Shown here: piece by piece, positions 2,374 through 25,462 of the stretch
Layout: every line of letters starts with the position of its first letter
Position numbering within the stretch: position 1 is the stretch's first letter
Assembly (NCBI GenBank): GCA_963823335.1
Contig: CAWGLD010000005.1
Location: 224,001-288,000, forward strand
DNA: 64,000 nt
Direction of reading: 5' to 3'
DNA from: an uncultured delta proteobacterium
GTDB lineage: Bacteria > Desulfobacterota > Desulfobacteria > Desulfobacterales > B30-G6
Notes under the pieces: model-generated
The model's input: only the letters and a program-made list of their open reading frames with translations
Told to the model about the DNA's origin: nothing
The model's database searches: none
Program-made: the position numbers and the translations under genes

Positions 2374-2476
2374 AACTGAACCTATTTGGTGTTACCCGAC
2401 AACCCGGATAGTCGTTTATACTTTGATCTGCCAGGCTAAAAAGGGAATATTAGGAAATATACACAAGGAGGGTATT

Positions 2477-2842
2477 ATGACAAAACTCACTGACGAAGCT
2501 AAAAAGGCTATTGGCGAAATTCGCCCATCGTTGGTTGCTACGGCAAGCAGGACAGGAAAACCAAATGTCTCCGCTAAAGGGTCGTTTCGTGTTCTGGATG
2601 ATGAAAACGTTATATTTGCAGACATAGCGTCTCCCCGAACTGTCGCCAACATCAGGGAGAATCCCCAGGTGGCCATTATCTGCTTGGACGCTGCGACGCG
2701 AAAGAGCTGCCGGATTTGGGGGAAGGGCAGTATCCTCACCTCAGGCGAACTCTTCCAACAATTAGCCGCTGAATATGCCAAGAAGAACATGGAAGTGAAA
2801 AATGTGGTAAAAGTGGCTGTGGAGGAGGTTGAGACCTTTTAA
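2477..2842 (+). CDS. Pyridoxamine 5'-phosphate oxidase-like FMN-binding protein
   Basis: AAGGAGG RBS; VATASRTGKPNVSAKGS, RTVANIRENPQVAI motifs. Confidence 0.8.
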   Translation: MTKLTDEAKKAIGEIRPSLVATASRTGKPNVSAKGSFRVLDDENVIFADIASPRTVANIRENPQVAIICLDAATRKSCRIWGKGSILTSGELFQQLAAEYAKKNMEVKNVVKVAVEEVETF

Positions 2843-3649
2843 ATGGCCAGACTGGGGATAATTGCCTGCCAAATCCTTGAGCTTGAGTTAGCCCATCTGC
2901 TTGTCAATGACATCGAGGTATTCGGTATTACCGTACTTGATAACGGTTTTGGCGATGGATTTTTTCGAGCGCTGAAACAGAAAGGGGAGAAAGCACTCAG
3001 GCTCACCGGAGACACGGGGAAGTATCTATCGCTCGAACCAGATCAGCTTGAGGTTGTTGTTCAGATCATGGAGTTAGGCCTGCACACGGTAATCAGAGCC
3101 CTCCGAACAACTGTGATCGATGCAGTGTCGGAGATGAGCACGCACGTGGATGCAATAGTGCTCGGGTATGGTCTGTGTGGGAATGCGCTCGACAATCACC
3201 AAGAGATCATCAGGGATATCGATATCCCCCTATTCATGCCCATGGATGAGGATCATACTGTGGACGACTGTGTCGGGCTTATCATTGGCGGACGCAAGGC
3301 TTATTATGAAGAGCAGTGCAAAATTGCCGGCACTTTTTTTATGAATGCCGGTTTTTCCCGTCATTGGAAGGACCTTTTACAGAAAGCGAATGCGGTTAAG
3401 TTTGATGAGGCGATGTCCAAGCGTATCATGGCGGGATATGAGAGAAGTCTTTTGCTGATCACGCCGGTTCTTTCCGAAGAGGAGATGGCTGCCAACATAG
3501 AAGATTTCAATCAAACATATGGACTGCGGACCGAGGTTCGTAAGGGAACGCTGGAGATTCTCGAGAGAACGTTGGTCAGGGGAAAGAATTTCGTATTGAA
3601 AAAAGGCGATAACCAGCATACTGATCGCGAAAAAAGAGCGAAAACTTAG
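2843..3649 (+). CDS. DUF1638 family protein (corrinoid methyltransferase-associated)
   Basis: IIACQILE, ELGLH, LGYGLCGNAL, DDCVGLIIGG motifs; starts directly after the upstream stop. Confidence 0.8.
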   Translation: MARLGIIACQILELELAHLLVNDIEVFGITVLDNGFGDGFFRALKQKGEKALRLTGDTGKYLSLEPDQLEVVVQIMELGLHTVIRALRTTVIDAVSEMSTHVDAIVLGYGLCGNALDNHQEIIRDIDIPLFMPMDEDHTVDDCVGLIIGGRKAYYEEQCKIAGTFFMNAGFSRHWKDLLQKANAVKFDEAMSKRIMAGYERSLLLITPVLSEEEMAANIEDFNQTYGLRTEVRKGTLEILERTLVRGKNFVLKKGDNQHTDREKRAKT

Positions 3650-3829: not shown

Positions 3830-4180
3830 TTAAAAATTAAAAACCTTTCCCTCAGCAATCAAATCGATTAGGTGAGGTGCGCCGTCCAGCAGCATATTGG
3901 AAAAAAACTTGGCCTCGTCCACCTGACGAGCGTTTGCGCACGGCGGTCAGACACCTATGGGAACTTCATTTTCGACCAAATAGGGTAAGTAATCATCGGG
4001 GCAGTCACCGGTAACGCTCTTTTCTTTGAAGTCGCGGGTGTTATCGGCCCACTTGACGCCATCCTCGATCAGGAAGATATTTACATTGTGCCCCTTTTCA
4101 TGGGTAAATTTTGCGAATTGAAAACATCTTGTGGCCAGATTGACATCATTCTTGCTGAGCGTGTATACAAAATTTGCCAT
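3830..4180 (-). CDS. DsrE-family selenoprotein (U-P-P-C), 116 aa
   Basis: GAGGAGG RBS; GHNVNIFLIEDGV DsrE motif; UGA at 3949-3947 reads through to PPCANARQVDEAKFFSNMLLDGAPHLIDLIAEGKVFNF*; SECIS-like hairpin 3930-3914. Confidence 0.9.
3914..3930 (-). promoter_or_regulatory. SECIS-like hairpin (DsrE)
   Basis: CUCGUC-AGGUG-GACGAG, 6-bp stem; loop starts 22 nt after UGA. Confidence 0.8.
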
Positions 4181-4265
4181 TCCACACCTCCTCTAATGAG
4201 ATATATTCGGTTCCATCGTTTTGGCCCTTTATCCTGTTTCCGGGAGCTAACATCCCTAGCAAGGT

Positions 4266-4778
4266 TCAAAGTTTCTGTTGACGGATCCCTGAGTAAACAG
4301 CTTTGCAGATTTCCGAAATACCTCCCTTTAGACCATCAGGGTTTTTGAATCCCTCGGTTCTTTTCAGGCTTTCAATATAGCCCTCTGCGGTTAAAAAAGA
4401 TTTGAGTCCATGCTCATCCGGCTCATCCGGTTTGATTTGGAACACCCAGCCCTCACCATATGGATCCCGTGATATGAGGGGCACATTCAGTTTTGAACTG
4501 TGGTTGAAATGGATGTGTCCGGAAAGAGGGGCATCAATATATTGGATTTTTCCGGTGATGCAAAAAATGACTGTTTGGCCCCTGGGGACGTGTTGCCCAT
4601 CCGATACAAGCCAGTCCAGATCGTTGATGCCCCCGGCCAGAACCAGGGAGGGTTCCGTGAGCCCGAAGACGATGAATTCTTGATTCGATTTGGCCCATAA
4701 TCCCTGCTTCCCAAAATAGCCTCGATCGCCCGGGACGCTTACACGTTTTCCCAAAAATTTTTCAATGACAGCCATCAA
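4266..4778 (-). CDS. GcvH-like (lipoyl-carrier fold) protein with C-terminal extension
   Basis: GLT, TGKIQYIDAPLSG, ISRDPYGEGWVFQIK match H-protein; extra tail GGISEICKAVY. Confidence 0.75.
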   Translation of the reverse strand: MMAVIEKFLGKRVSVPGDRGYFGKQGLWAKSNQEFIVFGLTEPSLVLAGGINDLDWLVSDGQHVPRGQTVIFCITGKIQYIDAPLSGHIHFNHSSKLNVPLISRDPYGEGWVFQIKPDEPDEHGLKSFLTAEGYIESLKRTEGFKNPDGLKGGISEICKAVYSGIRQQKL

Positions 4779-5010
4779 ATCCTCCTAAACCCATGACACT
4801 AAAATCTTTCATGGTGCTAGTTGATCATTAATGTCCTGTGTTGTTATCAGAAGATTATGTGTTGTAGAAAATCGTTTTACAAGCATTATTTTATAGTAAG
4901 AAGGAAGAAACCTCGAAACTGAAAATGCCACGAAAAGAGTATTGATATCTTGAAAAGACCATTGTAACAATACGCATCTTATTTTCATTGTGGCTGAAGG
5001 TGTTTTCAGG

Positions 5011-5961
5011 ATGAGTAAAATCCGGCGATATATTTATCAAACCCAGGGTGTCTGTCCCCCGGAAATTCATTTCCAGGTAAAGGACGCCATTCTTGAAAGT
5101 GTTCGTTTTGTTGGTGGAGGTTGCCCAGGGAATGCCCAACTTGTAGCGCGTCTGCTGGAGAGGAGGCCTATTGCCGAGGTGTTGCCGATCCTAAACGGGA
5201 TCGAGTGCAGCAAAGGAACATCATGCCCGGACCAGTTGTCAGAGGCAATAAGAAGGATGCAGCGCGGAGATCTCCGGCCGACTTCTTCCTTTCGTGTGGA
5301 GCAAGACTTGTCCTCAGAAAAAATGATCGGTCTCATCGGTGACCTAAACGGTGATCACCGGGTACTGCAACAGTTGATCGGATCAATGGCGGCATGTGGC
5401 GTTGAAGCGATTTTTTGCGCCGGTAACCTGACCGGTCCGGAAAAGGCAGATCGAAAGCTGATCAAGGAGATCGACGAAAAGGGTCTTCGGGCCATTACGG
5501 GAGACAGGGACTGGACGTATGCATGTGAAATGGAAGCGGCGAAGTTTCCGTTCATAGACAATAAAACTAGGGATTTTCTCGTCCGCCTACCTCAGGTGAT
5601 CAGCTTTCGCATAGGGGACAGAAATGGCGTGTTGTTTTTCGGCGATTATCTCCAAAGCATGTCGGGATATTCTGATTTTGAACCGTACGCACTGGAAATC
5701 AATATGGTTTGCGGCTTAACGGATTTCATGCGGGACGAAAGCGTATTCCCGGCACTGGAGGCCATGACCCCGCAGTTTCGAGCGGATATCATCGTATTCA
5801 GCCAAACCGGAAGATGGGGACATTGGCACGTGGCTGGCAAAGATTTTATCGGTCTGGGGCCCGCTGTCGGTATGGACGGCATGGCATGGGCGAGCCTGGA
5901 AATCAAATCCGGGGAGTTGAAATTTTCTAAAATAGTCACCAGTAACGCAGGCGGAGTCTAA
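5011..5961 (+). CDS. TSCPD (TIGR03905-like) domain fused to degenerate metallophosphoesterase domain
   Basis: TQGVC..GGGCPGN..CSKGTSCPDQL, then IGDLNGD, CAGNL, TGDRD (calcineurin-like pattern with altered ligands). Confidence 0.75.
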   Translation: MSKIRRYIYQTQGVCPPEIHFQVKDAILESVRFVGGGCPGNAQLVARLLERRPIAEVLPILNGIECSKGTSCPDQLSEAIRRMQRGDLRPTSSFRVEQDLSSEKMIGLIGDLNGDHRVLQQLIGSMAACGVEAIFCAGNLTGPEKADRKLIKEIDEKGLRAITGDRDWTYACEMEAAKFPFIDNKTRDFLVRLPQVISFRIGDRNGVLFFGDYLQSMSGYSDFEPYALEINMVCGLTDFMRDESVFPALEAMTPQFRADIIVFSQTGRWGHWHVAGKDFIGLGPAVGMDGMAWASLEIKSGELKFSKIVTSNAGGV

Positions 5962-5962
5962 T

Positions 5963-6271
5963 ATGGTAGAACTTGTTCTTGTTGATGTGCTGCTAACCGA
6001 TTTCAATCAATGAATCGCCTGTGTCTATATGGCAGAATCGGTAAAGGTTTTACCGGAAGATATCAAGGCGATTATCGACGTTTATGAGTGGGATATGCGT
6101 ACACGTGAGGGTGTACAGCGCTTTAAAGAACTGAAAGCCAAATCCTTGCCGAGTGTCGCCCTGGACGGGAAACTGGTCTGGGAGTCCATTATTCCCATGC
6201 AGGAAGAAATCATTGCCAAAATTCAGGATCTTTACCGCCAAAAGAGTCAAGGAGTTTTAGATGCATCTTGA
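5963..6271 (+). CDS. Thioredoxin-fold selenoprotein (U-I-A-C), 102 aa
   Basis: ATG 5963 with GGAG RBS; MVELVLVDVLLTDFNQ-UGA(6011-6013)-IACVYMAES aligns with QCAACGYMMES of 21079; SECIS-like hairpin 6039-6055. Confidence 0.9.
6039..6055 (+). promoter_or_regulatory. SECIS-like hairpin
   Basis: CGGUAAA-GGU-UUUACCG, perfect 7-bp stem; loop starts 32 nt after UGA. Confidence 0.75.
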
Positions 6272-10030: not shown

Positions 10031-10633
10031 ATGGCAATAGACGGAAATAAGATCATCCATGCGGTCATGGAAGGCAGCCGAATACGAGAGGCAAAAGGGA
10101 TTATCCCTCTTTTCGGTGTTTACCTCTCCATTTTATCGGTGGGATACTATAATAAGCTCAGTTTTGACTTCGAGCGTAGGATGGGTGATACAAACGCTGT
10201 CGAGGCCCGATCATTATTGACCAGGGCGGCCCAGGAGTGTGGTTACGCTACATTTCAGGGTATACGAAATTCGTGGGAATGGGATGAAATCATTAAACCC
10301 ATGATTGAATCCGAGAAAGACCAGGTCGAAGGATTTATTTCCGTAGCGGTCGCATTCGGGTGGGGGGATCTTGAAGTCAGGGAACTCATACCCAATGAGA
10401 AGCTCATCATTCGTGCGACTGAGTCTTATGAAGCCGGCGGCTATCTCAATGATTATGGTACAGCCGTCTCCAGCAAATGCTATATGCTTCGTGGTGTAGC
10501 GGGAGCTTTTATGGACCTTCTTTATGGGGACGCATATCCTGACGGCTGTTTTACATTTATGGCAGAGGAGCGGTTCTGCCGCGCAAAGGGAGATTCATAC
10601 TGTGAATTCATTGTTCGCAGATCATCTCATTAA
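10031..10633 (+). CDS. V4R-domain protein
   Basis: FGWG, SYEA, CYMLRGVAGA, ERFCRAKGDSYCEF. Confidence 0.8.
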   Translation: MAIDGNKIIHAVMEGSRIREAKGIIPLFGVYLSILSVGYYNKLSFDFERRMGDTNAVEARSLLTRAAQECGYATFQGIRNSWEWDEIIKPMIESEKDQVEGFISVAVAFGWGDLEVRELIPNEKLIIRATESYEAGGYLNDYGTAVSSKCYMLRGVAGAFMDLLYGDAYPDGCFTFMAEERFCRAKGDSYCEFIVRRSSH

Positions 10634-10640
10634 TATCACC

Positions 10641-13753: not shown

Positions 13754-14710
13754 ATGTTTCAGCTCAGTAAGGAGCAAAAGGTTTGTGAAGTCGGTGGAGT
13801 GAAATTCGGTGGCCAGCCGGGTGAATACCCTTGTGTGTGTGTGAGTTCTATTTTTCAAAAAGGAGATAGGATTTTTGACGGAAAACGGAAGGAAGGCTTT
13901 AACGAGAAGAGGGCTGAGGAACTTTTAAAAGAACAAGAACGTCTGACCGTGGAAACCGGGGTTCCGGGAATGGCGGACATCGTCGCGAATACAGGAGAAG
14001 AGTTTAAAACCTATATCGATTTTGTTTCATCGGTCAGCAACATGCCGTTTTGCATCGACGCCTGGGTAATGAAACCGAAACTGGCCGGAGCGGCATATTG
14101 TGCCGAGAAAGGGTTGATGGATCGCATGTTCTACAACAGTCTCACCGTGTGGGAAAAGGATCTGGAGACTGAAATCCGCGAAATTTATCAACTGGGAGTT
14201 AAACACGTGCTCTTGGTCGCCTTTGACCAGGAAGACCAGATGCCCAGCGGAAGAATTACAGGTACCCAGAGACTGCTGGATGCGATTGATAAGGCGGGGG
14301 CGGAATTTGAAAGCATTTTCGTGGACACATCGGTAATGAACGGTCCGGCCACTGCCTTTTGTAGTATTGCCAATAGAATGATCAAAGAAAAGTGGGGTTT
14401 TCCCACCGGCAGCGCACCCAGCAACGGCTCCTATATGGATCTGACTAGATTCAAGGAAAACCTGGGTTTCAAAGGTTGGTCAGCCACGGATGCGGCTCTT
14501 GAATCTCTAGCTGCTTTTTTTTATCATGACATAATTTTTTCCGGACCAATGGCGGGAGCCGGCCGAATATTTCCTGCGGTTGCAGAAGCGGAGGCGTTTC
14601 TGGCTACCGCTGTTTTTGCCGAAACTAAAAAACTGCCAAAAGAACCGAGTCATCCATTGTACAAACTGTTCCCAGATTTTGTGGAGCAATTAAACGTTTT
14701 AGCCGGATAG
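13754..14710 (+). CDS. MtrH-family methylcorrinoid:pterin/THF methyltransferase (CmuB/MecF/MtgA-like)
   Basis: GAGGAGG RBS; MFQLSKEQKVCEVGGVKFGGQPGEYP N-terminus; FYNS; WGFPTGSAPSN. Confidence 0.85.
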   Translation: MFQLSKEQKVCEVGGVKFGGQPGEYPCVCVSSIFQKGDRIFDGKRKEGFNEKRAEELLKEQERLTVETGVPGMADIVANTGEEFKTYIDFVSSVSNMPFCIDAWVMKPKLAGAAYCAEKGLMDRMFYNSLTVWEKDLETEIREIYQLGVKHVLLVAFDQEDQMPSGRITGTQRLLDAIDKAGAEFESIFVDTSVMNGPATAFCSIANRMIKEKWGFPTGSAPSNGSYMDLTRFKENLGFKGWSATDAALESLAAFFYHDIIFSGPMAGAGRIFPAVAEAEAFLATAVFAETKKLPKEPSHPLYKLFPDFVEQLNVLAG

Positions 14711-14755
14711 ACATAAACTATTATCTACCCAAACATTTTTGAAGGGAGTTGAATC

Positions 14756-15808
14756 ATGGCAGAGCTTACACCAAAAGAACGCGTCATGCGATTATTGCGA
14801 AAAGAACCCATTGACACCATGCCGTTTTTCAGCGGGATGGGTATGGTCGTGATGCCGGGTATCGACAAAGCGGGTGTCAATTTCGCAAGCATTCATACCG
14901 ATGCAGAGCGGATGGCCCGTTCAGCGCTGTGGTCTTCGAGATTAATGGGATTTGACTGTGCAGTCATACCCTATGATATGACCATGGAATCGGAAGCGAT
15001 GGGCAATACGATCAGTCTTTATAAGGACAGTGAAGACATCCTCTATCCAACCATCCCGCAAAAAATATGGAGCACCATAGATGAGGTGAAGATTCCCGAC
15101 AATATCGTCGAACTGGGACGTCTGCCACTGATCCCCAAAGCCATCGAGGTTATCAAGAAGGAAGCTCCCGAGCTTCCCATCGGATGCTGGCAACTGGGGC
15201 CGTTTACACAGGCAGGCCAGATTCTGGAATTGGATTTGATTCTCAAGGGCGTGTTCAAGCAGAAAGCCAAGGTCGAGGAACTGCTGGATAAATTGACTGA
15301 CATGATCATCAAGATCGGTCAGTGGATGCAGGCCTCCGGGTGTGACTATATGACACTTCGTGAGCCAGGTGTTGCCGCCGATCTACTAAGCCCGCGGACC
15401 TTTCGCGATATCATCAAACCCAGGTTGACACGTATTCTGGAAGCGTGGGGCTCACCTAAATTACTGCACATATGTGGACAGACCGATCCGTTGATAGAAA
15501 TGATGAACGAGTGTGGTGCTGATGGTCTGACCGTTGATATAAAATGCAATCTTGCCGAAGCTAGGAAAAAACTGGGTAACGATGTGCTCCTGATGGGAAA
15601 TCTGGACACCTACACCATGACCTGTGATGAGAAAACACCTGTAGATAAGACTGTCGCGCACGTGAAAGAGATCATCGACAGCGGTGTCGACGCCGTTATG
15701 CCGGGATGTGATTTGTGGCCAGCAATCATTGAAGAAAATATGAAAGCTGTTTCGGATACGACCCACACGTACGGGAAAAAACCCAGCCCCGCCGTTGGAA
15801 GACTTTAG
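14756..15808 (+). CDS. MtaA/CmuA-family (UroD fold) Zn methyltransferase, Cys form
   Basis: LTPKERV, ESEAMG, GRLP, GPFT, Zn ligands HICG and PGCD. Confidence 0.88.
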   Translation: MAELTPKERVMRLLRKEPIDTMPFFSGMGMVVMPGIDKAGVNFASIHTDAERMARSALWSSRLMGFDCAVIPYDMTMESEAMGNTISLYKDSEDILYPTIPQKIWSTIDEVKIPDNIVELGRLPLIPKAIEVIKKEAPELPIGCWQLGPFTQAGQILELDLILKGVFKQKAKVEELLDKLTDMIIKIGQWMQASGCDYMTLREPGVAADLLSPRTFRDIIKPRLTRILEAWGSPKLLHICGQTDPLIEMMNECGADGLTVDIKCNLAEARKKLGNDVLLMGNLDTYTMTCDEKTPVDKTVAHVKEIIDSGVDAVMPGCDLWPAIIEENMKAVSDTTHTYGKKPSPAVGRL

Positions 15809-15880
15809 ACGCTCGTAATGTGACACCCTTGCAGGAACGGTTGAAATAAATGAAATCTGAAAAATAAGGAGAGAATACCT

Positions 15881-16540
15881 ATGGCAACAAAAGAAGAGTT
15901 ACTCGAAAAAATGAAAACAGCGGTTATCGAATGGCAGGAAGACGATATCGGCGGATATGCCCAACAGTTTCTGGATGATGGGCACGTGGCCCTGGAAGGG
16001 ATTATGGATGGATTGGCGGCCGGGATGGAAGTTGTCGGTGACTTGTATGATCGTAACGAATACTTCGTTCCCGAGGTGTTGATGTGTGCAGATGCGTTAT
16101 ATGCGGGTCTGGCTGTCCTGAGGCCCCATGTCCCAAAGTCGGAAAGTGGACCCAAAGCCCAGGTCGTTATCGGAAGCATTCAGGGAGATGTACACGATAT
16201 CGGCAAAAATCTGGTCAAGATGATGTTTGACGTGGCCGGATGGGAAGTTCACGACCTGGGTCGCGATGTGCCGCTGGAAAATTTTGTTTCAGAGCAGCTG
16301 CGGACCGATTCGGAAGTTGTGGCCATGTCGGCCATGATGACCACGACCATGATGGGTATGAAGAAGGTCATAAAAATGATCAAAGACAAGAATCCTGACG
16401 TGGCCATCATGCTGGGCGGGGCGCCGGTAACCAAGGATGTGGCCAATCTCTTTGGAGCGGACGGCTATGCCGAATCAGCTGGAAATGCCGTATCGGAAGG
16501 GATTAAAATGATCGGCCGCCTGCGGGAAATGCACAAATAA
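15881..16540 (+). CDS. Methyltransferase corrinoid protein (MtaC/MtbC-like)
   Basis: Cap domain GMEVVGDLY..YFVPEV; GDVHDIGKNLV (DxHxxG); SAMMTTT; GGAP. Confidence 0.93.
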   Translation: MATKEELLEKMKTAVIEWQEDDIGGYAQQFLDDGHVALEGIMDGLAAGMEVVGDLYDRNEYFVPEVLMCADALYAGLAVLRPHVPKSESGPKAQVVIGSIQGDVHDIGKNLVKMMFDVAGWEVHDLGRDVPLENFVSEQLRTDSEVVAMSAMMTTTMMGMKKVIKMIKDKNPDVAIMLGGAPVTKDVANLFGADGYAESAGNAVSEGIKMIGRLREMHK

Positions 16541-16560
16541 AAACAGCCCTGATGGACGAT

Positions 16561-16606
16561 ACCCCGAACCATGAGTATCCCGTGAGAAGTGGTTCGGGGT
16601 TTGTTG
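16561..16606 (+). terminator. Hairpin / possible partial terminator after corrinoid gene
   Basis: ACCCCGAACCA...TGGTTCGGGGT followed by TTGTTG. Confidence 0.45.
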
Positions 16607-16673
16607 TGCGCTGAACATAAGTCATCCGCGTACGGTAGGCAATGCTAATTCAATTTGAGGAGGAATCTGGCGA

Positions 16674-18734
16674 ATGAGCGACGATAAAGCAATGGTAATC
16701 TTTCAGCCTTCTGGCCGAAGAGGGGAGATTGCTAAAGGGACCAATATAATTGAGGCATCTCGGTTGCTCGGGGTGGATATCGAAGCCCTTTGCGGGGAGA
16801 AGAAAGTCTGCGGGAAATGTGTTGTACGTATTGAAGAGGGGACTTTCGAAAAATACGGTATTACATCGAGTATAGAGAATGTGAGTTCATGGCAGGAGGA
16901 AGAGGAAAAATTCATCAATGCGGAGCGAAAACAGAAGGGATTTCGCTTGGGGTGTATGGCGAAGATCAACGATGATGTCCTCATTTTCGTTCCCGAGGAG
17001 TCACGTGCAGGGAAACAGGTGGTGAGCAAGGCTGCCCGAGATATTCACATCGAGCACGACCCGGCCGTGAAGGTTTACCATGTGCAGGTGGCGCCGCCAA
17101 CCTTTGAGGAACCCCTGGGTGATTTTGAGCGGGTTTGCCGGGGACTTCAACGGGAACACGGTCTAGGCGATCTGGGCATCGATGTTTTTGCACTCAGACA
17201 GCTGCCGGTTGCTCTGCGAGATGGGGACTGGGCCGTGACCGTGAGTGTGTGGAACGACAAAGAGGTCATCCGTGTTCGGCCCGGCAAGGAAGAGAAGTCA
17301 TACGGCTTGGCTATCGACGTTGGGACGACGACCGTTGCCGCTTATTTTTGCGACCTGACGACCATGGAAGTTATTGACACGGTTTCCATGATGAACCCTC
17401 AGTGTAAATACGGTGAAGACGTGATGGCACGCATCACGTACCATATGACCACACCGGATGGTCTTAAGCGGATGAGCGACGACATCATCGAAGGCGTAAA
17501 CGAGATGATCGACAAGGCGATTGATAACACCTTCCCGCCCAAGAAAAAGAAGAAGAAAAGAAAAGGGGAGGAGGGACCGGTAGAATATGTGGAAGCCCCT
17601 GAAGAAGGAAAGACCTACCTGAGGCTAACACATGAGGACATCGAGGATATCACCATCGGATTTAACACGGCCATGCACCATATATTTCTCGGGTTGGATC
17701 CGGAGTTTGTCGGACTTGCACCATTTCCGCCGGTCATTCACCATAGTATGGACATCAAAGCCAGAGACCTGGGTATCGGCATCAATCCTTCGTCCTACCT
17801 GTTCGTGCTTCCCATTGAAGCCGGATTTGTAGGTGCGGACAATGTGGGGGTACTGCTTGCCGAAGAACCCTATAAGCATGAAGAGAATCAACTGATCATC
17901 GATATCGGTACCAATGGTGAGTTGGTGCTGGGTAACCGGCACAAGTTGATTTCATCGTCATGTGCAACGGGCCCGGCCCTCGAAGGTGCTCAGATCGCAT
18001 TTGGTATGCGGGCGGCACCGGGAGCCATCGAACGGATATTGATCGACCCGGTAACCAAGGAGACAGACTACAAGGTCATCGGGCGTGATGCCTGGCGAAA
18101 GTTTTCCAAACCCAAGGATATGAAAGCCAAGGGCATCTGCGGTTCGGGTATTCTTGACCTTCTGGCCGAGTTGTACACATCGGGTGTGATCTTAAAAAGC
18201 GGTGTGTTTAACAAGAAGGCCCTGAAGGATCACCCCCGTTTCAGAATCAACCCGGATACCAAACAACCCGAGTTTGTTCTGGCCTGGGCTGAAGAGTCGA
18301 GTATCGACAAAGATATCGTCGTGACACAAAAGGATATCCGGCAGATTCAACTGGCCAAGGGGGCCTTGTATGCCGGCTGTAAACTGATGGTCAAACGGAT
18401 GGGACTTGAGAAGGTCGACCGGGTTAAAATAGCGGGTGCATTCGGCACACATGTGGATCGAACCAAGGCTCTGGTCATGGGTTTGTTCCCTGATTGTGAT
18501 ATCGACAAGATCGAAGGTGTCGGCAATGCCGCGGGTGACGGCTGTAGAACCGCCCTGTTGAACAGGAAGAAGCGTGCGGAAGCCAACTGGTGTTCTCAAA
18601 ATGTTGAATATATCGAACTTACCGTCGAAGAGACATTTCAGCAGGAATTTATGGAAGCCATGCAACTGCCGCATATGACGGATAAATTCCCACACCTCAA
18701 GGGTATCGTTCCGGATGACATTCTAAACCAATAA
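16674..18734 (+). CDS. ASKHA-type reductive activator of corrinoid proteins (RACo/DUF4445) with N-terminal 2Fe-2S
   Basis: CGEKKVCGKC..RLGC; DVGTTT; YGEDV; GFVGAD; DIGTNGE; GICGSG; AGAFG; GNAA. Confidence 0.92.
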   Translation: MSDDKAMVIFQPSGRRGEIAKGTNIIEASRLLGVDIEALCGEKKVCGKCVVRIEEGTFEKYGITSSIENVSSWQEEEEKFINAERKQKGFRLGCMAKINDDVLIFVPEESRAGKQVVSKAARDIHIEHDPAVKVYHVQVAPPTFEEPLGDFERVCRGLQREHGLGDLGIDVFALRQLPVALRDGDWAVTVSVWNDKEVIRVRPGKEEKSYGLAIDVGTTTVAAYFCDLTTMEVIDTVSMMNPQCKYGEDVMARITYHMTTPDGLKRMSDDIIEGVNEMIDKAIDNTFPPKKKKKKRKGEEGPVEYVEAPEEGKTYLRLTHEDIEDITIGFNTAMHHIFLGLDPEFVGLAPFPPVIHHSMDIKARDLGIGINPSSYLFVLPIEAGFVGADNVGVLLAEEPYKHEENQLIIDIGTNGELVLGNRHKLISSSCATGPALEGAQIAFGMRAAPGAIERILIDPVTKETDYKVIGRDAWRKFSKPKDMKAKGICGSGILDLLAELYTSGVILKSGVFNKKALKDHPRFRINPDTKQPEFVLAWAEESSIDKDIVVTQKDIRQIQLAKGALYAGCKLMVKRMGLEKVDRVKIAGAFGTHVDRTKALVMGLFPDCDIDKIEGVGNAAGDGCRTALLNRKKRAEANWCSQNVEYIELTVEETFQQEFMEAMQLPHMTDKFPHLKGIVPDDILNQ

Positions 18735-18757
18735 ATAGTATTGAGATCGAAACACAC

Positions 18758-19156
18758 ATGCAGAAAAAACAACATGAGAGCGAATCTGCACGAAATGTAT
18801 CCGTAACATCACATGCGGTCTGTATTCATGTGATGCCCGGTATCTGCGGATTTACCGCTGTTATCAGCGCATGCAAACTGGAAAATAAGAAAATACGTTT
18901 CCAGATTTCAGATTCAGAGTGTGGGCAGATCAAGATGCTTGCGGCAACTTTGCAAGAAATGGATTGGAAAGACCTGTTTGTGCCCCTGACACGCAACCCG
19001 GTGTATGTAAATGCCGAGAAATCAGGATGCCACCCGTCATGTGTCATACCTGCGGCGATGCTCAAAGCCGCAGAGGTAGCGATGGGAATGGCGATTCCAA
19101 AAGATGTTTATTTCCGATTTCAACCGTGTGACGGGGAGCCGATCCATGAAGACTAA
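18758..19156 (+). CDS. DUF6951-like Cys-containing protein
   Basis: PGICGF, SEC, CHPSCVIPAAMLKAAEV...PKDV. Confidence 0.65.
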   Translation: MQKKQHESESARNVSVTSHAVCIHVMPGICGFTAVISACKLENKKIRFQISDSECGQIKMLAATLQEMDWKDLFVPLTRNPVYVNAEKSGCHPSCVIPAAMLKAAEVAMGMAIPKDVYFRFQPCDGEPIHED

Positions 19157-19742
19157 AACGGTGGTACCGTTTCGATCCAATGCAGGCATATCTTACGCGT
19201 TGATGAACCGGCTTTTGAGCAGCGGAAAAAAATACGGGCTGAACGCAATATTCCCATTCAGCCCGGAAAAAATTGTCGTTGCCGAATGGGTACTTTTAAA
19301 GTGCCAGTACGGCTGCAGTTGCTACAATACCAACTGGACATGTCCCCCAACGACACCGGATCCTGAAAGGGCACGCGCGATTCTAAACGAATACTCGTTG
19401 GCGTTGTTTCTCGTCGGCAGCAGGAACTGCTCAGATTTTTACCTGGACAACTCGCGTAAACGCGCCAGTCAGGTAAAATGTTGGAAAGGCACCATATCAC
19501 TGGAAAGGATGCTTTTTCTTGAAGGTTACTATAAAGCGTTCAGTCTTGTGGGTGAATGCTGCGCTCTGTGCAAGAGCTGTGCATATCCGGAAGTTTGCCG
19601 GTTTCCACAGGAAAAAAGGCCCGCAGTGGAGTCTTTTTCGATCGATGTGATCAGCACCTTGCACAATCTTGAGACGAACTCGACCGTGGCAACAAAACTG
19701 GACGACAATTTCAACTATTTCTCGATCATTCTTCTTGAATAG
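19146..19742 (+). CDS. DUF2284 predicted metal-binding protein
   Basis: KCQYGCSCYNTNWTCPP, CALCKSC..CRFP..RPAVES. Confidence 0.8.
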   Translation: MKTKTVVPFRSNAGISYALMNRLLSSGKKYGLNAIFPFSPEKIVVAEWVLLKCQYGCSCYNTNWTCPPTTPDPERARAILNEYSLALFLVGSRNCSDFYLDNSRKRASQVKCWKGTISLERMLFLEGYYKAFSLVGECCALCKSCAYPEVCRFPQEKRPAVESFSIDVISTLHNLETNSTVATKLDDNFNYFSIILLE

Positions 19743-20016
19743 ACAAAGGCAGACGATCTTTTAACAATCGCTACATTTTAGTTTTTTAACTTGACTATAA
19801 TGGCAGAAATCTTCATCCTAAAAGAGCCAGATTTCTGCACATTGATGGTAAAAAAGCGGCAGACCGGTCTGAACAACGAATCGCAAAAATATTAGATGAC
19901 GGAAAATGCCGGTCCAGTTGCTGTAACCCGCACAATTCTGAAAGGGGGTGATACGCAGGAAGCTCAATTTCAACCCACCTAAAACAATTACCTATTATCA
20001 GGAAAGGAGAGAAGCA

Positions 20017-21051
20017 ATGGCCAAACAAATGCTCATAGATGCTTATCGGGGAAAGATGACGCCCAAAGCACCGTGGGTACCGTATGCTGGTGTGCATTGT
20101 GCATTCTTGATCGAAGAAGAAGCCGATACAATGCTAAAAGATCCGGAACTTCTTGCAAAGGGTGTTGTGGAGGCAGCAAAACGGTACAAAGCAGACGGTA
20201 TCCCCCTTCTATTCGATCTCTCGGTGGAAGCCAACTCCATTGGTTGTGACTTGAAATGGTGGCCGGACAATGTTCCTTCTGTCCAGAATCATCCCTGTTC
20301 AGACAAAACCCCTCAGGACGCAGGACTTAAGCTCCCCACCAAGGATTCCGGCAGGTGGCCCGTTATTTTTGAGGCTGCAAGAATCGCCAAACCTCAACTG
20401 CAAGAGCTTGACTGCGCTCTTATGGGTCTTTTTTGTGGCCCGTTGACACTGGCGTCCCATCTGGCTGGTGTGCGTATCTTTACCGATGTATACAAAAACA
20501 GGGAATTTGCCCACGAAGTCGTGAAATTTGCAGGTGCGGTGGGTGCATTATCTGCACAATTCTATGCGGAAATGGGTTGTGAGATCATTGCCTGTGTGGA
20601 CCCGGTTGCCTCACAGATTAAGTCCGAAACCTTCAAGGAGTTCGTTACGCCTAATTGTCAAGAGGCGATTAAGGTTATTCACGACGCCGGATTGACCTCA
20701 TCCTTTTTTATTTGTGGCGACTGTACCAGGGTCATGGAAGATGTTTGCCAGATCGGTACGCATGGGTTTGCCATCGATGAACAGCTGAACTTGAATTTTG
20801 TACGCGACCTTGCGCGCAAACACGGTGTCGGGTTTGGTGGCAACTTGAAGCTGACCCTTGCTTTGAGCCTGGGTTTGATCTCCTCCAGAGAAGATGCCAT
20901 CGTGAGCCTTGCCGCCGGAGGGCAACACGGCTACACGTTTGCACCCGGCTGAGATATGCCATACGATGTTCCGGTGGAACATATGGACCAAGCGCTCGAA
21001 GTCAGGGATTGGTATGAACAATTCTATGCCAAGTATCCGGAATCTTGGTAA
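20017..21051 (+). CDS. MtaA/CmuA-like (UroD fold) methyltransferase selenoprotein, 344 aa, Sec312
   Basis: AAGGAG RBS; APWVPYAGVH, GPLTLA, FICGD; APG-UGA(20950-20952)-DMPYDVPVEHMDQALEVRDWYEQFYAKYPESW* aligns with PGCD of 14756; SECIS-like hairpin. Confidence 0.92.
20959..20986 (+). promoter_or_regulatory. SECIS-like hairpin
   Basis: CCAU-(ACG bulge)-AUGUUCC-GGU-GGAACAU-AUGG; loop starts 20 nt after UGA. Confidence 0.85.
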
Positions 21052-21078
21052 ACCATTTATGAAAGGAGACTTCGGATT

Positions 21079-21468
21079 ATGGCAGATAAAATACACATAG
21101 ATGTTCTGACCCTGGACAGTGTTCAATGCGCTGCCTGCGGGTACATGATGGAGTCGATTGCCGCGCTCCCAGGTGATATACAGGCGGTGATCGAATACAA
21201 GGAACACTCGATTAAAAACAAAGAAGGTGTCGGTAAATTTCTCGAGCTCAAAGGCAAGGTGCTCCCAACGATTTGCATTGAGAACGATCTGGTGTTTGAG
21301 AGTATCATCCCGCAATACGAGGAACTCATCGACGCTATGGCTCAAAGAGCACCCAACGATGAATTACGGGAAAAGATTAAAGCCCTTCGCGAGCACGGTT
21401 TCGAGTTTGACAAAATACAGGAAAACCTGGCCAAGGCGGGCTCCGGTCAAAAAACGCGCGCGAACTGA
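21079..21468 (+). CDS. Thioredoxin-fold protein (C-A-A-C)
   Basis: AAGGAG RBS; DVLTLDSVQCAACGYM, VLPTI, FESIIP. Confidence 0.85.
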   Translation: MADKIHIDVLTLDSVQCAACGYMMESIAALPGDIQAVIEYKEHSIKNKEGVGKFLELKGKVLPTICIENDLVFESIIPQYEELIDAMAQRAPNDELREKIKALREHGFEFDKIQENLAKAGSGQKTRAN

Positions 21469-21511
21469 GAATAAGCGTTTAAAAGAACGAACATCAACTA
21501 TTTGCAATGAT

Positions 21512-21549
21512 GCGATTGGGGGCCCCTCGGGGCCCTCAATCGCCTTCTT
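21512..21549 (+). terminator. Putative intrinsic terminator
   Basis: GCGATTGGGGGCCCC-TCG-GGGCCCTCAATCGC followed by CTTCTT. Confidence 0.55.
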
Positions 21550-21602
21550 GGGAATGACAACTTTTTCGAAAACGGATAGTTCCCGATTATAGGGTCCCCA
21601 CT

Positions 21603-21905
21603 ATGTCCATAAATCATCTTGAGGGGGTACTGGCGTTAAAGCAGCTTGTAATTAGGCATGGACTGCCGAGAGACGATTATGCGTTCTTTGGTGTCAAATG
21701 TCCTTATTGCGGGAAAATGGATCGCATCTGCCGTTTGGATCCTCCCGGGAGACTGAAGCAGGCTATGGGTCCCGAGGACACACTGTCATATGCAGAGCGT
21801 TGGAATACGGTTTCCCTTCCTGATCATTTGTTGGGTGTGTGTAAATTTTGCCACAACCTCCTGAAGCTGGACGAGACGATGAAGGCCGCCCCCCTGGCCG
21901 AGTAA
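21603..21905 (+). CDS. Hypothetical Zn-finger-like protein
   Basis: CPYCGK and CKFC pairs. Confidence 0.65.
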   Translation: MSINHLEGVLALKQLVIRHGLPRDDYAFFGVKCPYCGKMDRICRLDPPGRLKQAMGPEDTLSYAERWNTVSLPDHLLGVCKFCHNLLKLDETMKAAPLAE

Positions 21906-22040
21906 CACCCTATTGTAGTAATTTAATTCACTGCCGAACCCGCTGCCCGATGAAGGCGAATCCACATGTTTCTTTATAACTATTTTGGAAGATCAAGCCA
22001 ATGAGAACCCCCCATGCAAACCTGATACTGGAGGAAGATA

Positions 22041-22289: not shown

Positions 22290-23324
22290 ATGTTTGACAC
22301 GACGCGGGTATATTTAATTACGGGTTTTCTCGGAAGCGGCAAAACCACATTGTTGAATCGGATTATCGACGGCTTCCCCAAGGACAAAAAACTGACCCTC
22401 CTGGTAAACGAATTCGGCGAGGTAGGTGTGGACGGCACCTTGGTGGAGGGTGACGACATCGATATGATGGAAATCAGCAAAGGGTCGATTTTCTGTGTCT
22501 GTGTCAAAACCGATTTTATCAAAGGCCTGTATGAACTCAACACGAAAGTCAAACCCGATGTCCTTTTGATCGAATCCACCGGGGTGGCAAACCCCACTGA
22601 CCTGAAAAGAGATCTCAAACTTCCTATATTCAACGATCGGTTTCATTTTCAGGAGCAGTTCTGCGTCATCGATGCCGTCCATTTTATGGATGCTTTCGAA
22701 GTCTATGCTTCCCTCGAAAAACAGATTGCCTCGTCCAGTGTCTTTATTATTAATAAAACGGATATCGCAACGCCTGAAGGTATCGAAGCGATCAAAAAGG
22801 TGGTCCGGCAATTTCATCCGGACCCCTTGTTTTATGAGACCACCTATGCTGATTTACCACTGAATCGATTTTTTGACTTCAATGGGGGGCACAACCCGGA
22901 TACGCAGAGAACAAAAGCTTTGGTTGAGCATACCCATGTGCTATCCGAACAGGAGTTGGAGAGATTTCTCGATGATATGCTCGACAATCCTGACCTGGAA
23001 ATCACCCCACCGGATGCCCTTGTTTCCGTGGCCTATCAATGGGAAGGCAACAACCTTGAGCAGATTAAAAACATGGCCAGGGCATTGCCTGCCGATATCG
23101 TGCGTGCGAAAGGTTTTGTTGTCGCAGAGGGCAGCTTATTTATTTTCAACTATGTCATGGGAACCTGGAGTATAGAACCATCGAGGAAGCCGATGGAGCG
23201 CGTCGTTCATAAAAACATCATTGTCTTCATCGGTCCTCAGGAAACGATGGCAGGAATTGAATCTGTGATAAGCGGTGAAAACTGGAAAAGCAGGGGGATT
23301 TTTCAGCCCTATTCCGAGGGATAG
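22290..23324 (+). CDS. COG0523/CobW-family GTPase (atypical GSIFCVC motif)
   Basis: TGFLGSGKTT, NEFGEVGVDG, ESTG, NKTD, RAKG. Confidence 0.88.
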   Translation: MFDTTRVYLITGFLGSGKTTLLNRIIDGFPKDKKLTLLVNEFGEVGVDGTLVEGDDIDMMEISKGSIFCVCVKTDFIKGLYELNTKVKPDVLLIESTGVANPTDLKRDLKLPIFNDRFHFQEQFCVIDAVHFMDAFEVYASLEKQIASSSVFIINKTDIATPEGIEAIKKVVRQFHPDPLFYETTYADLPLNRFFDFNGGHNPDTQRTKALVEHTHVLSEQELERFLDDMLDNPDLEITPPDALVSVAYQWEGNNLEQIKNMARALPADIVRAKGFVVAEGSLFIFNYVMGTWSIEPSRKPMERVVHKNIIVFIGPQETMAGIESVISGENWKSRGIFQPYSEG

Positions 23325-23367
23325 CGTTGCGATTCAAACATCATTTGCAGACGATTGAGTTGAAAAG

Positions 23368-24291
23368 GTGACGATGGATATGTATGATTTGATGATTGTT
23401 GGTGCGGGACCTGCAGGCATGACCGCTGCATTGTATGCGCAGAGGATGGGGCTGGATGTGCTTGTTTTTGGCGATATTGCCGGGGGCAGCACGTATATGA
23501 TCGAACAACTGAACAATTTTCCCGGGTTTATGAACGGGATTCCTGGAACCCAGTTCGGTCTTCAAACGTTTCAGCAGGCACAGCAAGAAGGCGCTTTCTT
23601 TACCATGACCCGGTTGGACGGCCTTTCTTTTGCAAACGGGCGGTTTATCGGAACCGATGCGGCCGGGAAATCGATCGTCGCAACGTGTGCCATTGTCGCT
23701 ACCGGAAGAACCCCCCAAAGATTGGACATTCCAAACGCAAATCTGAAAGGCATTCATTTCTGCTCGATATGCGATGGCCCTCTTTACAGGAACAAGCATG
23801 CGCATCTATCGGTCATCGGAAGCGATAACGCTGCCGGGCAGCATGCCATAGCCCTATCACGGGTGGCGGACAAAGTGCTCTTGGTTTGTCGGAGCGAGCA
23901 GCTGCTGATGGATGCTGTGCACCGGAAACAGATCGCATCCAAACAGAATCTCGATGTGCTTTGCGGAGTCGAAGTCTTGGGCTACGAGGGTCTCGACATG
24001 ATCGAGGGCATGAGGGTCAGGACAATGGAAGGTACTGAAAAACTATTGCCGGTGGATGGTGTCTTTCTGGCCATTGGCTGGCAACCGAATACAGGAATGC
24101 TGGATCTTGCCGCCGATACCACAGCGGAGGGCTATTTGAAGACCGATGAAAAATTAATGACCTCATTTCCAGGACTTTTTGCCGCCGGAGATGTCCGTAA
24201 TACAGATATGTGGCAGGTGTTGACGGCGTGTGCCGACGGCGCAAGGGCTGCCAAGCATGTTGCTGGGTTTTTATCGATCAGCCGACAATAA
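23368..24291 (+). CDS. Thioredoxin reductase-like flavoprotein
   Basis: GAGPAG, NFPG, ATG, CSICDG, GLFAAGDV; second Rossmann motif altered (GSDNAA). Confidence 0.85.
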   Translation: MTMDMYDLMIVGAGPAGMTAALYAQRMGLDVLVFGDIAGGSTYMIEQLNNFPGFMNGIPGTQFGLQTFQQAQQEGAFFTMTRLDGLSFANGRFIGTDAAGKSIVATCAIVATGRTPQRLDIPNANLKGIHFCSICDGPLYRNKHAHLSVIGSDNAAGQHAIALSRVADKVLLVCRSEQLLMDAVHRKQIASKQNLDVLCGVEVLGYEGLDMIEGMRVRTMEGTEKLLPVDGVFLAIGWQPNTGMLDLAADTTAEGYLKTDEKLMTSFPGLFAAGDVRNTDMWQVLTACADGARAAKHVAGFLSISRQ

Positions 24292-24316
24292 AATAGTCAT
24301 AAGAGGAGGCAGCCGA

Positions 24317-25462
24317 GTGAAAGCACCGAAACCATTGACGCCAAACTCACCGGTCAAACTGATATTTACCGGTGGATTTCTAGGAACGGGCAAAACCACA
24401 GCCCTTGCAGTATTGGCAAGAGAACTCATCGGTCAGGGTAAACGGGTCGGAATTATAACCAACGACCAAAGCGAAAACCTGGCGGATACGATCATTGTCA
24501 AGCAGTTACTCGGCGAGTTGGGTGTGCCGGTAGAGGAGGTTGTTGAGGGTTGTTTCTGCTGCAAATTCGATGAGCTTATCGATCAGATGGAGAAAATTCT
24601 CGTACACAAACCGGATGTCCTGATGGGTGAACCTGTGGGGAGTTGTACCGATTTTGTCGCGGCGGTTGCCAACCCCATAAAGATTCATTACAGGGATGCT
24701 TTCAGATTCGCACCATTTTCAACCATGGTAGACCCTGTTCGGGTTGGGGAATTTCTGATGGAGGACACCCAGACGACTTTTCCAGAGGAAGTGTCCTATC
24801 TTTTTCGCAAGCAGCTGGAGGAAGCGGACCTGATTGTGCTGAACAAGATCGACCAGTTATCCGATCCGGAAAGAGAGCGGCTTGTGGACGTTCTCAAGAA
24901 AAACTATCCTAAAAAGGAAGTGATGCCTGTGTCGGCAAAATACGGAAACGGTATGTCCGAATGGCTCGATGTCTTGCTTTCCGGAAGCCCCGGTGCGGAC
25001 ACGGTTTTGCATGAAATCGACTACGATCGTTATGCCAGAGCCGAGGCAGTGCTGGGATGGCTCAATGCTGCCGTAAAAATTACCGCCGACCGGTCGTTCG
25101 ATTCCGCAGTATGTTTGCGGGATCTGGCAGTAAAGTTAAGAGATGCCTTCCGGGAGATAAATGCCGGTATCGGCCATATAAAAATTGTCATGACCAGTGC
25201 CGGAAAATCCATGTGGGTCAATCTTACCCACCTGGCCGCCGAACCGATGCTCAGCGATAAACAGCTGGGAGATATCCCCGGGGGCAGTCTCATTGTCAAC
25301 GCCAGGGTTCAGATCGTTCCCGAGGTACTGGAAACCATCGTGCGCAGCGCCATTGAAGAGACATCCGTTTCACAAGGCTTTCGATGGGAAATCATCGACC
25401 TGCAATGCTTCAGCCCGGCATATCCTAACCCGCCTTACCTGGTTCGTGAAGAAAGCGTCTAA
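24317..25462 (+). CDS. COG0523-like GTPase
   Basis: GAGGAGG RBS before GTG; GGFLGTGKTT, TNDQ, GCFCC, EPVGSC, NKID. Confidence 0.85.
   Translation: MKAPKPLTPNSPVKLIFTGGFLGTGKTTALAVLARELIGQGKRVGIITNDQSENLADTIIVKQLLGELGVPVEEVVEGCFCCKFDELIDQMEKILVHKPDVLMGEPVGSCTDFVAAVANPIKIHYRDAFRFAPFSTMVDPVRVGEFLMEDTQTTFPEEVSYLFRKQLEEADLIVLNKIDQLSDPERERLVDVLKKNYPKKEVMPVSAKYGNGMSEWLDVLLSGSPGADTVLHEIDYDRYARAEAVLGWLNAAVKITADRSFDSAVCLRDLAVKLRDAFREINAGIGHIKIVMTSAGKSMWVNLTHLAAEPMLSDKQLGDIPGGSLIVNARVQIVPEVLETIVRSAIEETSVSQGFRWEIIDLQCFSPAYPNPPYLVREESV

Follow-up and report, generated by a model that had tools for sequence, protein, structure and literature searches.

What does a gene for a relative of the glycine-cleavage H protein do beside a gene for a DsrE-like selenoprotein? 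The two lie next to each other on the minus strand, between positions 3,830 and 4,778 of a 64,000-nucleotide stretch (hereafter the window) from an uncultured member of the Desulfobacterales (contig CAWGLD010000005.1, positions 224,001 to 288,000). The preliminary description of this DNA saw in them a lipoate-dependent sulfur relay like that of the sHdr system, accepting the thiol or sulfane product of a demethylation. Our own answer, held with a little less than even confidence, is that the pair forms a small operon encoding two components of a cytoplasmic cysteine/selenocysteine (thiol-selenol) relay; that it belongs to neither glycine cleavage nor an sHdr/LbpA-type lipoate system is a conclusion we draw just as tentatively. 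Both genes are strong profile matches with conserved orthologues and not chance open reading frames (ORFs). The layout first reported, a minus-strand pair of an H-protein homologue with a lysine in TGK and a C-terminal extension and a DsrE protein with UPPC, is confirmed in the sequence. The features of the first gene are:

4266..4775, minus strand: the GcvH-related gene, 169 amino acids from the ATG at 4775, stop codon included; NF045810 match, with a GcvH fold in the core of the AF2 model.
4548..4550, minus strand: the Lys77 codon (lysine of ITGK); profile alignments and the model turn place this residue where H-proteins have the lipoyl-lysine.
4269..4346, minus strand: the C-terminal arm (residues 145-170), with the Cys158 codon at 4305-4307 and the motif KNPxGxKGGxSxxCKAVYSG.

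The listed ORF, 4266-4778(-), is a longer, TTG-start form of the GcvH-related gene. The N-terminus of every relative is MAVIEKF; therefore, ATG 4775, which lies 6 nucleotides (nt) downstream of an AGGAGG, is the likely start. Residues are numbered here along the TTG-start form (P0002, 170 amino acids). The protein matches the family NF045810, "GcvH-related protein" (GcvH_rel_desulf), at 248.7 bits against a cut-off of 150, over model positions 1-167 of 167. Pfam GCV_H is matched weakly (E 2.7e-8), and neither the gcvH equivalog TIGR00527 (24.8 bits vs 115.85) nor NF002270 (38 vs a cut-off of 117) is reached. The protein is not a glycine-cleavage H protein.

The surroundings agree with the earlier observation that the window holds no gcvP or gcvT: neither is matched among the 56 window ORFs that were scanned by Pfam (31 plus 25, most of the non-overlapping ORFs of at least 110 amino acids; 98 ORFs are listed). 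For comparison, we used 72 related loci from one scan of species-representative genomes with a GcvH-related protein, nearly all of them metagenome-assembled genomes of Desulfobacterales, plus the isolate Desulfatitalea alkaliphila M08but, whose copy (locus L064) is 52% identical. Neighbours were detected by tblastn at 35% identity or higher over at least half of the query, with window proteins and representatives of neighbour clusters as queries; the common neighbour clusters, together with another 119 representatives at least 150 amino acids long, were also scanned by Pfam. The neighbour scans of the 72 loci returned no GcvT, GcvP or Hdr operon. The partner genes P, T and L of the GcvH system are absent around the window protein, both among the 56 window ORFs and among the neighbours of the 72 loci.

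We found 559 relatives of the GcvH-related protein. The family alignment holds 188 sequences, made up of 121 search proteins (query included) and 67 locus translations, with some redundancy possible; a smaller alignment, A4, holds the query and 12 relatives from an exhaustive search, 27-53% identical to it. The AF2 model, built on a 26-sequence alignment, has a pLDDT of 72.4, with a confident GcvH core and an unstructured tail. Its closest structure is the Thermus H-protein 1onl, with a TM score of 0.85 (on target), and a search of the protein atlas gave no match at or above 0.8. The fold and the lysine at the lipoylation position are common to GcvH, LbpA and the window protein. GcvH differs in having ESVK instead of ITGK, a longer hairpin and no 30-residue Cys tail, and relative to H-proteins the window protein also gains an N-terminal strand pair. 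Within NF045810, on the other hand, there is no family-defining difference, as the window protein shares with its relatives the length of ~169 amino acids, the ITGK hairpin and the invariant Cys tail. Another cysteine, Cys73 (FCITGK), occurs in only 23 of the 188 sequences.

Longer or fused forms were not found by a word index search, and the exhaustive search gave a few fusions. P0277 (294 amino acids) joins an ArsR/SmtB helix-turn-helix (HTH) domain to a GcvH-related domain with the Cys tail, and P0271 (405 amino acids) joins a GcvH-related core without the tail to an arsenite-methyltransferase-like domain. Two others contain ordinary GcvH: P0281 (1391 amino acids) has three GcvH domains together with FAD-linked oxidase, 4Fe-4S and CCG domains, and P0288 (626 amino acids) is joined to a dihydrolipoamide-dehydrogenase-like flavoprotein.

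Which residue of this protein would do the work, the lysine or the cysteine? Lys77 stands in I-T-G-K-I, where solved H-proteins have E-S-V-K-A/T, and the hairpin around it is one residue shorter than in H-proteins. With the family profile, Lys77 falls on the lipoyl-lysine in 5/5 printed alignments (1onl, two Escherichia coli chains and two Mycobacterium tuberculosis chains), and in the model it lies in the hairpin turn between strands 69-74 and 78-82, so its alignment with the lipoylation site holds. A single-sequence alignment to the M. tuberculosis chains places it off by one. In the family alignment, residue 77 is Lys in 178 sequences and Arg in 10. The ten are 80-99% identical to one another and ~63% identical to the window protein, and form one clade; two of them, scored on NF045810, reached 262 and 256 bits and are full family members. 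Because Lys77 is Arg in one clade, whose two scored sequences are full members, lipoate is presumably not essential to the family. The lipoyl-lysine of GcvH and LbpA, by comparison, is strictly conserved according to the available part of bioRxiv 10.64898/2026.10.01.755906. Arg at this position would, as far as sequence can tell, be a replacement that a lipoyl attachment site could not tolerate, and the alignment indicates that Lys77 matters yet is replaceable by Arg.

The C-terminal extension of the window protein, ...GGISEICKAVYSGIRQQKL, behaves differently: N146, P147, G152, G153, S155, C158, K159, V161 and Y162 are invariant in 188/188 sequences. In A4, the tail form GSPTCKxxYSGI is present in 12 of 13 sequences and the lysine in all 13; the one sequence without the tail is a fusion protein that has an arsenite-methyltransferase-like domain in its place. 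Arm residues 145-170 have a pLDDT of ~33, and the arm is predicted to be flexible. Since the tail is invariant throughout the 188 sequences whereas Lys77 is replaced by Arg in ten of them, we take the Cys arm to be the invariant functional element of the family, and Cys158 on this arm is likely the working group of the carrier.

The second gene of the pair has the following features:

3830..4180, minus strand: the DsrE-like UxxC selenoprotein gene, 116 amino acids through TGA, with TAA at 3830-3832; Pfam DsrE.
3947..3949, minus strand: the TGA of selenocysteine 78 (Sec78) in V-U-P-P-C, with the Cys81 codon at 3938-3940.
3912..3931, minus strand: candidate bacterial SECIS hairpin (the selenocysteine insertion sequence), 15 nt after the TGA, with a 7-bp stem, one bulged A and the loop AGGUK.

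The match to Pfam DsrE (PF02635) has an E value of 5.2e-15 and 56.1 bits against a cut-off of 22.7. TGA occupies the identical codon in 9/9 orthologues (eight from the related loci, plus the window) and has xPC after it; eight of them read UPPC, and locus L016 reads UIPC. Relative to the window, the codons 3' of the TGA show 12-17 synonymous and 2-8 non-synonymous changes per comparison; therefore, the segment after the TGA is translated, under purifying selection. Among the 120 DsrE relatives listed, 93 are 116 amino acids long, and 90 of these have Cys at residue 78 (85 CTPC, 2 CPPC, 2 CIPC and 1 CVPC). The other three have W at the Sec position (W-I-P-C), a TGA read as Trp, and 19 of the 120 are 77-residue stumps that end at the TGA. 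On this comparative evidence, the in-frame TGA is read as selenocysteine.

The candidate SECIS hairpin is kept in 9/9 sequences as a consensus fold, with one compensatory pair (C-G to U-A), and its codons carry solely synonymous changes (1-2 of 7 codons per comparison). We take the 15-nt spacing and the GGU loop to fit a bacterial SECIS. Thermodynamics lends it no support: the single-sequence fold after the TGA is no better than that of shuffled sequences (z -0.03), and the structure of lowest energy is not the conserved hairpin. The support for the SECIS is comparative, not thermodynamic. Genes for the selenocysteine machinery (selA, selB, selC, selD) were not matched among the 56 window ORFs.

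The AF2 model of the DsrE-like protein has a pLDDT of 90.4, and the nearest folds are YchN (1jx7) and DsrE (2hy5_A). When the family profile is aligned to PDB sequences, Sec78 falls on Cys78 of the DsrE chain 2hy5_A, a number obtained by counting along the printed alignment, and on the Cys of TusD 2d1p_A; phmmer with the protein itself gave no match to PDB sequences at E up to 0.1. Cys78 of DsrE is presumably the persulfide-carrying residue. The window protein thus shares its fold and this position with DsrE of DsrEFH and TusD of TusBCD. It differs from them in its motif, UPPC, since DsrE and TusD lack a CxxC-type motif (CVAAA in the alignments); it scores 18.6 bits on the TusD model against a cut-off of 89, and the partners DsrF/H and TusB/C are not nearby.

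A closer counterpart is the UxxC selenoprotein class of Zhang, Fomenko and Gladyshev (2005), which has PF02635, UxxC and Cys orthologues in common with the window DsrE; that both are one sub-branch is our inference. The window branch has two further invariant cysteines, as C19, C60, C/U78, P80 and C81 are invariant in 20/20 aligned members. The first description of this DNA rightly called UxxC DsrE selenoproteins a known class: in the accessible part of PMC1088965 they appear, in print since 2005, as candidate thiol-dependent redox selenoproteins, with UxxC as a redox motif. The available text of PMC1976440 counts a DsrE-like selenoprotein among the known families detected in the Olavius delta-1 symbiont, and a 2026 review includes the DsrE-like UxxC class (PMC13188914, in the part available). 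We also tried SaoD, a DsrE-like CxxC protein of a proposed organometallic system (10.1101/2022.07.06.499078, available portion), as an identity for the window DsrE and rejected it; no SaoD model matched, and the only matches were weak ones to TusD.

Some sources label the Cys orthologues "predicted peroxiredoxin," which brings in one alternative. A lipoylated GcvH-related protein could reduce the DsrE-like protein as part of an antioxidant pair, as is thought for GcvH-like proteins and OsmC/Ohr; the accessible part of bioRxiv 10.64898/2026.10.01.755906 proposes a GcvH-like protein as electron donor to OsmC in Hyphomicrobium. The TrxR-like flavoprotein of the window, described below, could then replace dihydrolipoamide dehydrogenase. 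We consider this quite improbable, given the Lys-to-Arg clade, an invariant tail that it leaves unexplained, and neighbourhoods that are corrinoid or Tso and not oxidative stress. Furthermore, we know of no peroxidase activity in this DsrE branch.

Do the two genes belong together, and with what? In the window, the spacer between them is 88 nt long, with GAGGAGG ahead of the DsrE ATG and no terminator-like site. One further feature lies upstream:

4854..4882, minus strand: promoter-like site upstream of the pair, by consensus scan only.

The 72 loci show the GcvH-related gene in three kinds of neighbourhood. Setting A is a tightly packed, one-strand array of an ArsR-type regulator, a small HTH protein, TsoB, TsoC and the GcvH-related gene. 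Frequent next genes are a HUIPC-type thioredoxin-like protein, the DsrE-like selenoprotein (DsrE-Sec), an ArsM/DUF2284 double selenoprotein, PNPOx and DUF1638. In L025, the genes follow one another on the same strand with short spacers, in the order ArsR, HTH, TsoB, TsoC, GcvH-related, HUIPC-type thioredoxin-like, DsrE-Sec and ArsM/DUF2284. TsoB, a rhodanese/DsbD fusion selenoprotein (NF045694, 744 bits for the larger piece), is near the GcvH-related gene in 29/72 loci and TsoC (NF045708) in 34/72; TsoB, TsoC or a rhodanese part is near in 35/72. Neither TsoB nor TsoC has a match within the window. According to the available part of the review PMC13188914, it was Haft and Tolstoy (mSystems 2025) who reported the Tso "three selenoprotein operon" together with the selenoproteins that flank it. 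The NF045810 number comes directly after that of the TsoX model, NF045809, and these adjacent numbers suggest that the GcvH-related model was curated from Tso neighbourhoods.

The selenoprotein genes of L025 are also examples of miscalled ORFs. At L025:7905-9653, rhodanese and DsbD-TM/thioredoxin ORFs form one frame through two TGAs (…FY-U-AGLT-U-VRS…) that matches TsoB; ordinary ORF calling cuts it into pieces of 118 and 450 amino acids, and the same gene pair occurs in ~26 other loci. TsoC at L025:9656-9973 has an in-frame TGA in NEPNGKP-U. At L025:11952-12944, an ArsM-like methyltransferase has a TGA after 202 amino acids (…SWFQ-U-EGGA…), followed by the DUF2284 part, and the whole matches the "arsenite methyltransferase/DUF2284 domain selenoprotein" model.

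Setting B is best described against the window itself, which carries its own copy of the same gene order elsewhere, together with genes next to the pair:

13754..20952, plus strand: corrinoid methyltransferase core, with MtrH-like, MtaA/CmuA-like, corrinoid protein, RACo-type activator, DUF6951, DUF2284 and a second MtaA-like gene.
22290..25462, plus strand: CobW-like, TrxR-like (CSIC motif) and CobW-like genes.
4990..5961, plus strand, divergent from the pair: fusion of a TSCPD (4-Cys) domain and a metallophosphoesterase (TIGR03905, 68.3 bits vs a cut-off of 67.7).
2843-3649, plus strand, convergent with the pair: DUF1638.
2423-2842, plus strand, convergent with the pair: PNPOx-like flavoprotein.

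In setting B, which accounts for 19/72 loci, a CobW-like and a TrxR-like gene enclose the GcvH-related gene, which is on the opposite strand. In 18-19/72 loci, the GcvH-related gene is close to the TrxR-like and CobW genes, and its typical place is between the TrxR-like gene and the last CobW gene. The further genes are CobW, a small thioredoxin-like protein, MtaA-like, DUF2284, DUF6951, RACo, corrinoid protein, MtaA-like and MtrH, and their order equals that of window positions 13754-25462. A TrxR-like gene is near the GcvH-related gene in 18/72 loci, and CobW genes flank it in 14-17/72; the TrxR-like protein of the window retains CxxC (CSIC). Setting C, found in 9/72 loci and in the window, consists of the TSCPD-metallophosphoesterase, a small protein, an SMC_N-type ATPase, CobW, V4R proteins, a two-component system and MtrH. 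Most NF045810 relatives are thus beside Tso genes or between TrxR-like and CobW genes, and the window copy is in neither place. The PNPOx-like and DUF1638 families stand just past DsrE-Sec in L025 and L036 as well, and DUF1638 has a genetic tie to RamA-type corrinoid reactivation in the available parts of PMC5764234 and PMC12478193.

Across the set, corrinoid-related genes are near the GcvH-related gene in 30/72 loci and methyltransferase core genes in 16/72. At least one thiol/selenol redox gene (TsoB, TsoC, rhodanese, glutaredoxin/thioredoxin-like, TrxR-like, TSCPD or DsrE-Sec) is near in 60/72. Loci with neither Tso nor corrinoid genes number 14/72 and are mostly short contigs.

DsrE-Sec occurs in the flanks (within 10 kb) in 8/72 loci, and in 6 of the 59 loci whose downstream sequence is 2 kb or longer. 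Setting A accounts for seven of the eight: relatives of the GcvH-related gene directly follow TsoB and TsoC there, and DsrE-Sec lies 0.5-1.6 kb downstream on the same strand; in the eighth, L069, it is 8 kb away. The two genes could be mere neighbours that share no function. DsrE-Sec is, after all, missing beside the carrier gene in 64/72 loci, and the window arrangement of pair, TSCPD and methyltransferase core is found in none of the 72. We regard this explanation as very improbable, as eight independent species-level genomes keep the pair within 10 kb, and in seven of these the two genes share a strand and are no more than 1.6 kb apart. Such linkage would be far above expectation for two single genes in genomes of several Mb, and the short, terminator-free spacer of the window points the same way.

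The linkage to methyltransferase clusters that had been proposed as a check on the pair holds for only one of its members. The GcvH-related gene alone shows it, in the core and corrinoid-related counts given above; the pair does not, since no locus among the 72 has both DsrE-Sec and the methyltransferase core at the tblastn thresholds used. The nearest case is L025, with a distant MtaA/CmuA-like gene 8 kb downstream.

This bears directly on the sHdr-style relay, in which a lipoylated LbpA-like carrier and a DsrE sulfurtransferase would take the thiol or sulfane product of corrinoid-dependent demethylation. Several observations suit it: Lys77 at the lipoyl-lysine position, kept in 178/188 sequences; rhodanese and DsrE, the classic partners of sulfur relays, near the carrier gene (TsoB in 29/72 loci, DsrE-Sec in 8/72); ArsR-rhodanese fusions upstream in 5 loci; and the carrier gene in methyltransferase islands (16/72). 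There is also precedent, as LbpA works with sHdr and, in the LbpA/sHdr system, with dedicated ligases (PMC6067878 and bioRxiv 10.64898/2026.10.01.755906, in the parts available). We nevertheless judge this relay improbable. Members of the Lys-to-Arg clade score as full family, and the DsrE has a UxxC redox-type motif and two more invariant cysteines. The linkage of LbpA to shdr genes (HdrA, HdrB, HdrC-like) has no parallel here, as no Hdr/sHdr gene and no lipoate ligase or synthase was matched among the 56 window ORFs, and none was found within 3 kb of the GcvH-related gene in the 72 loci. Among the neighbours in these loci, neither the lipoate assembly genes sLpl(AB) and LipS1/S2 nor any match to BPL_LplA_LipB was found, and radical SAM proteins are singletons (L014, L060, L071). 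Only L030, with a CCG/Fer4 protein, and L014, with a DrsE_2 fusion, come near to an exception. The original proposal of an sHdr-like lipoate relay is therefore poorly supported, given the Arg77 clade and the missing sHdr and lipoate genes, in the window and in the 72 loci. Its companion claim, that the pair accepts the demethylation product, finds no support here, and the pair is kept in just 8/72 loci.

The same neighbourhoods fit another alternative, which we rate as unlikely, less so than the three above. Here, the Cys arm and the four-Cys/Sec DsrE-like protein would bind a thiophilic atom (As, Se, Te or Hg species, or corrinoid cobalt) and pass it to methylating enzymes (ArsM-like, or a corrinoid protein with an MtaA-like partner) or to B12 chaperones. 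The fusions P0277, with its ArsR-type HTH, and P0271, with its arsenite-methyltransferase-like domain, are consistent with such metal(loid) or corrinoid handling. So are the ArsM/DUF2284 double selenoprotein that adjoins DsrE-Sec in L025 and the counts near the GcvH-related gene of ArsR (18/72), MIP (4/72) and a SAM-methyltransferase family (9/72), together with the CobW genes that flank it. Single B12-related neighbours (CobT, CobA, a PduO-type adenosyltransferase, a B12-radical SAM protein, methylmalonyl-CoA mutase with MeaB, MtrA and CbiM) and metal-related ones (ChrB in 2 loci, a low-molecular-weight phosphatase, Metal_resist and a multicopper oxidase) add to this, and SaoD provides a DsrE-like CxxC protein in a proposed organometallic system (10.1101/2022.07.06.499078, available portion). 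On the other side, a metal-binding motif is not demonstrated, the carrier has a single invariant Cys, and the window DsrE matches no SaoD model. Furthermore, the ArsR family includes sulfur sensors, and on the BigR model the fused HTH scores 61 bits.

We return to the thiol-selenol relay. Building on the family memberships, the conserved residues, the Sec-decoding signals and the gene neighbourhoods, we infer a chemistry, a contact between the two proteins and a substrate along the following lines. The Cys158 arm would carry a group, as a disulfide or as a persulfide/perselenide. Sec78 of the DsrE-like protein would attack this group, a Se-S intermediate would form, and Cys81 would resolve it. 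Electrons would come from the TrxR-like flavoprotein of the island (CSIC) and from CxxC thioredoxin-like proteins (CAAC at 21079-21468 and CRKC at 25811-26056). As the same carrier gene is found within Tso operons or corrinoid methyltransferase islands, the relay probably serves the Tso/corrinoid systems. Its service would probably be to keep thiols and selenols reduced or to pass on sulfur or selenium, and it probably does not accept the demethylation product.

Several points, besides the folding result after the TGA, weigh against this relay. DsrE-Sec cannot be an obligate partner, being absent from 64/72 loci and from 53 of the 59 with 2 kb or more downstream. The retention of Lys77 in 178/188 sequences and in all 13 of A4 implies a role that the Cys-arm model leaves unexplained, and lipoylation may be possible in most GcvH-related members. 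Metal(loid) handling would account just as well for the ArsR, ArsM-like, MIP and CobW neighbours and fusions. Finally, the proposed chemistry and mutual binding of the two proteins are predictions from sequence, for two uncharacterised families.

A bolder version of the idea, rather doubtful in our view, is that the GcvH-related protein represents a new type of carrier, an H-protein scaffold with a Cys swinging arm instead of, or besides, the lipoyl-lysine. The cargo of such a carrier would be a one-atom or one-carbon group (sulfane sulfur, selenium, a metalloid or methyl), moved between corrinoid-dependent methyltransferases or B12 chaperones and selenoproteins (DsrE-like, TsoB, TsoC, ArsM/DUF2284). 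Our literature search, with supplements and the original Tso paper outside its range, found nothing on a GcvH-related/DsrE pair or on a link between the GcvH-related protein and corrinoid islands; what it returned on GcvH-like proteins together with DsrE concerns sHdr/LbpA only.

Other parts of the window deserve a brief description. Positions 1-40000 form a cobalamin island, with a BtuF-like binding protein (twice), FecCD and ABC-transporter genes, a TonB receptor and DUF4465. The island also has three CobW-like GTPases, two MeaB-like GTPases (one of them a 499-residue fusion), two CobA-type adenosyltransferases, the RACo-type activator, DUF1638, an old-yellow-enzyme-like protein and a U32 peptidase. 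Three small proteins in it resemble the thioredoxin fold. The one at 21079-21468, with CAAC, matches the HUIPC family weakly (33 bits, below cut-off), and the one at 25811-26056, with CRKC, reaches 52.6 bits on the MTH895/ArsE family, below the cut-off of 62. The third, at 6029-6271, has no Cys motif, and relatives of it are near the GcvH-related gene in 21/72 loci. A second V4R-like ORF (10031-10633) and a PAS histidine kinase (10524-12857) overlap by 110 nt as listed; the kinase start probably lies further downstream. We considered the dichloromethane "mec" cassette as the identity of the methyltransferase core and dropped it as undecidable, as the gene types overlap and the sets are generic. 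In its available part, the description of that cassette (10.1101/2021.08.30.458270) lists no GcvH or DsrE gene.

Each gene adds a new member to a catalogued yet uncharacterised family, and both families are common among the sulfate-reducing Desulfobacterales that live in marine sediments and in symbioses. For annotation, the locus warns against naming the first protein a glycine cleavage H protein, as several sources do, and against ending the DsrE gene at the in-frame TGA, as public databases often annotate this selenoprotein wrongly. For the biology of the family, the invariant Cys arm, the tolerated loss of the "lipoyl" lysine, and the way in which the gene travels with selenoprotein operons and corrinoid/B12-chaperone islands together give a testable carrier hypothesis.

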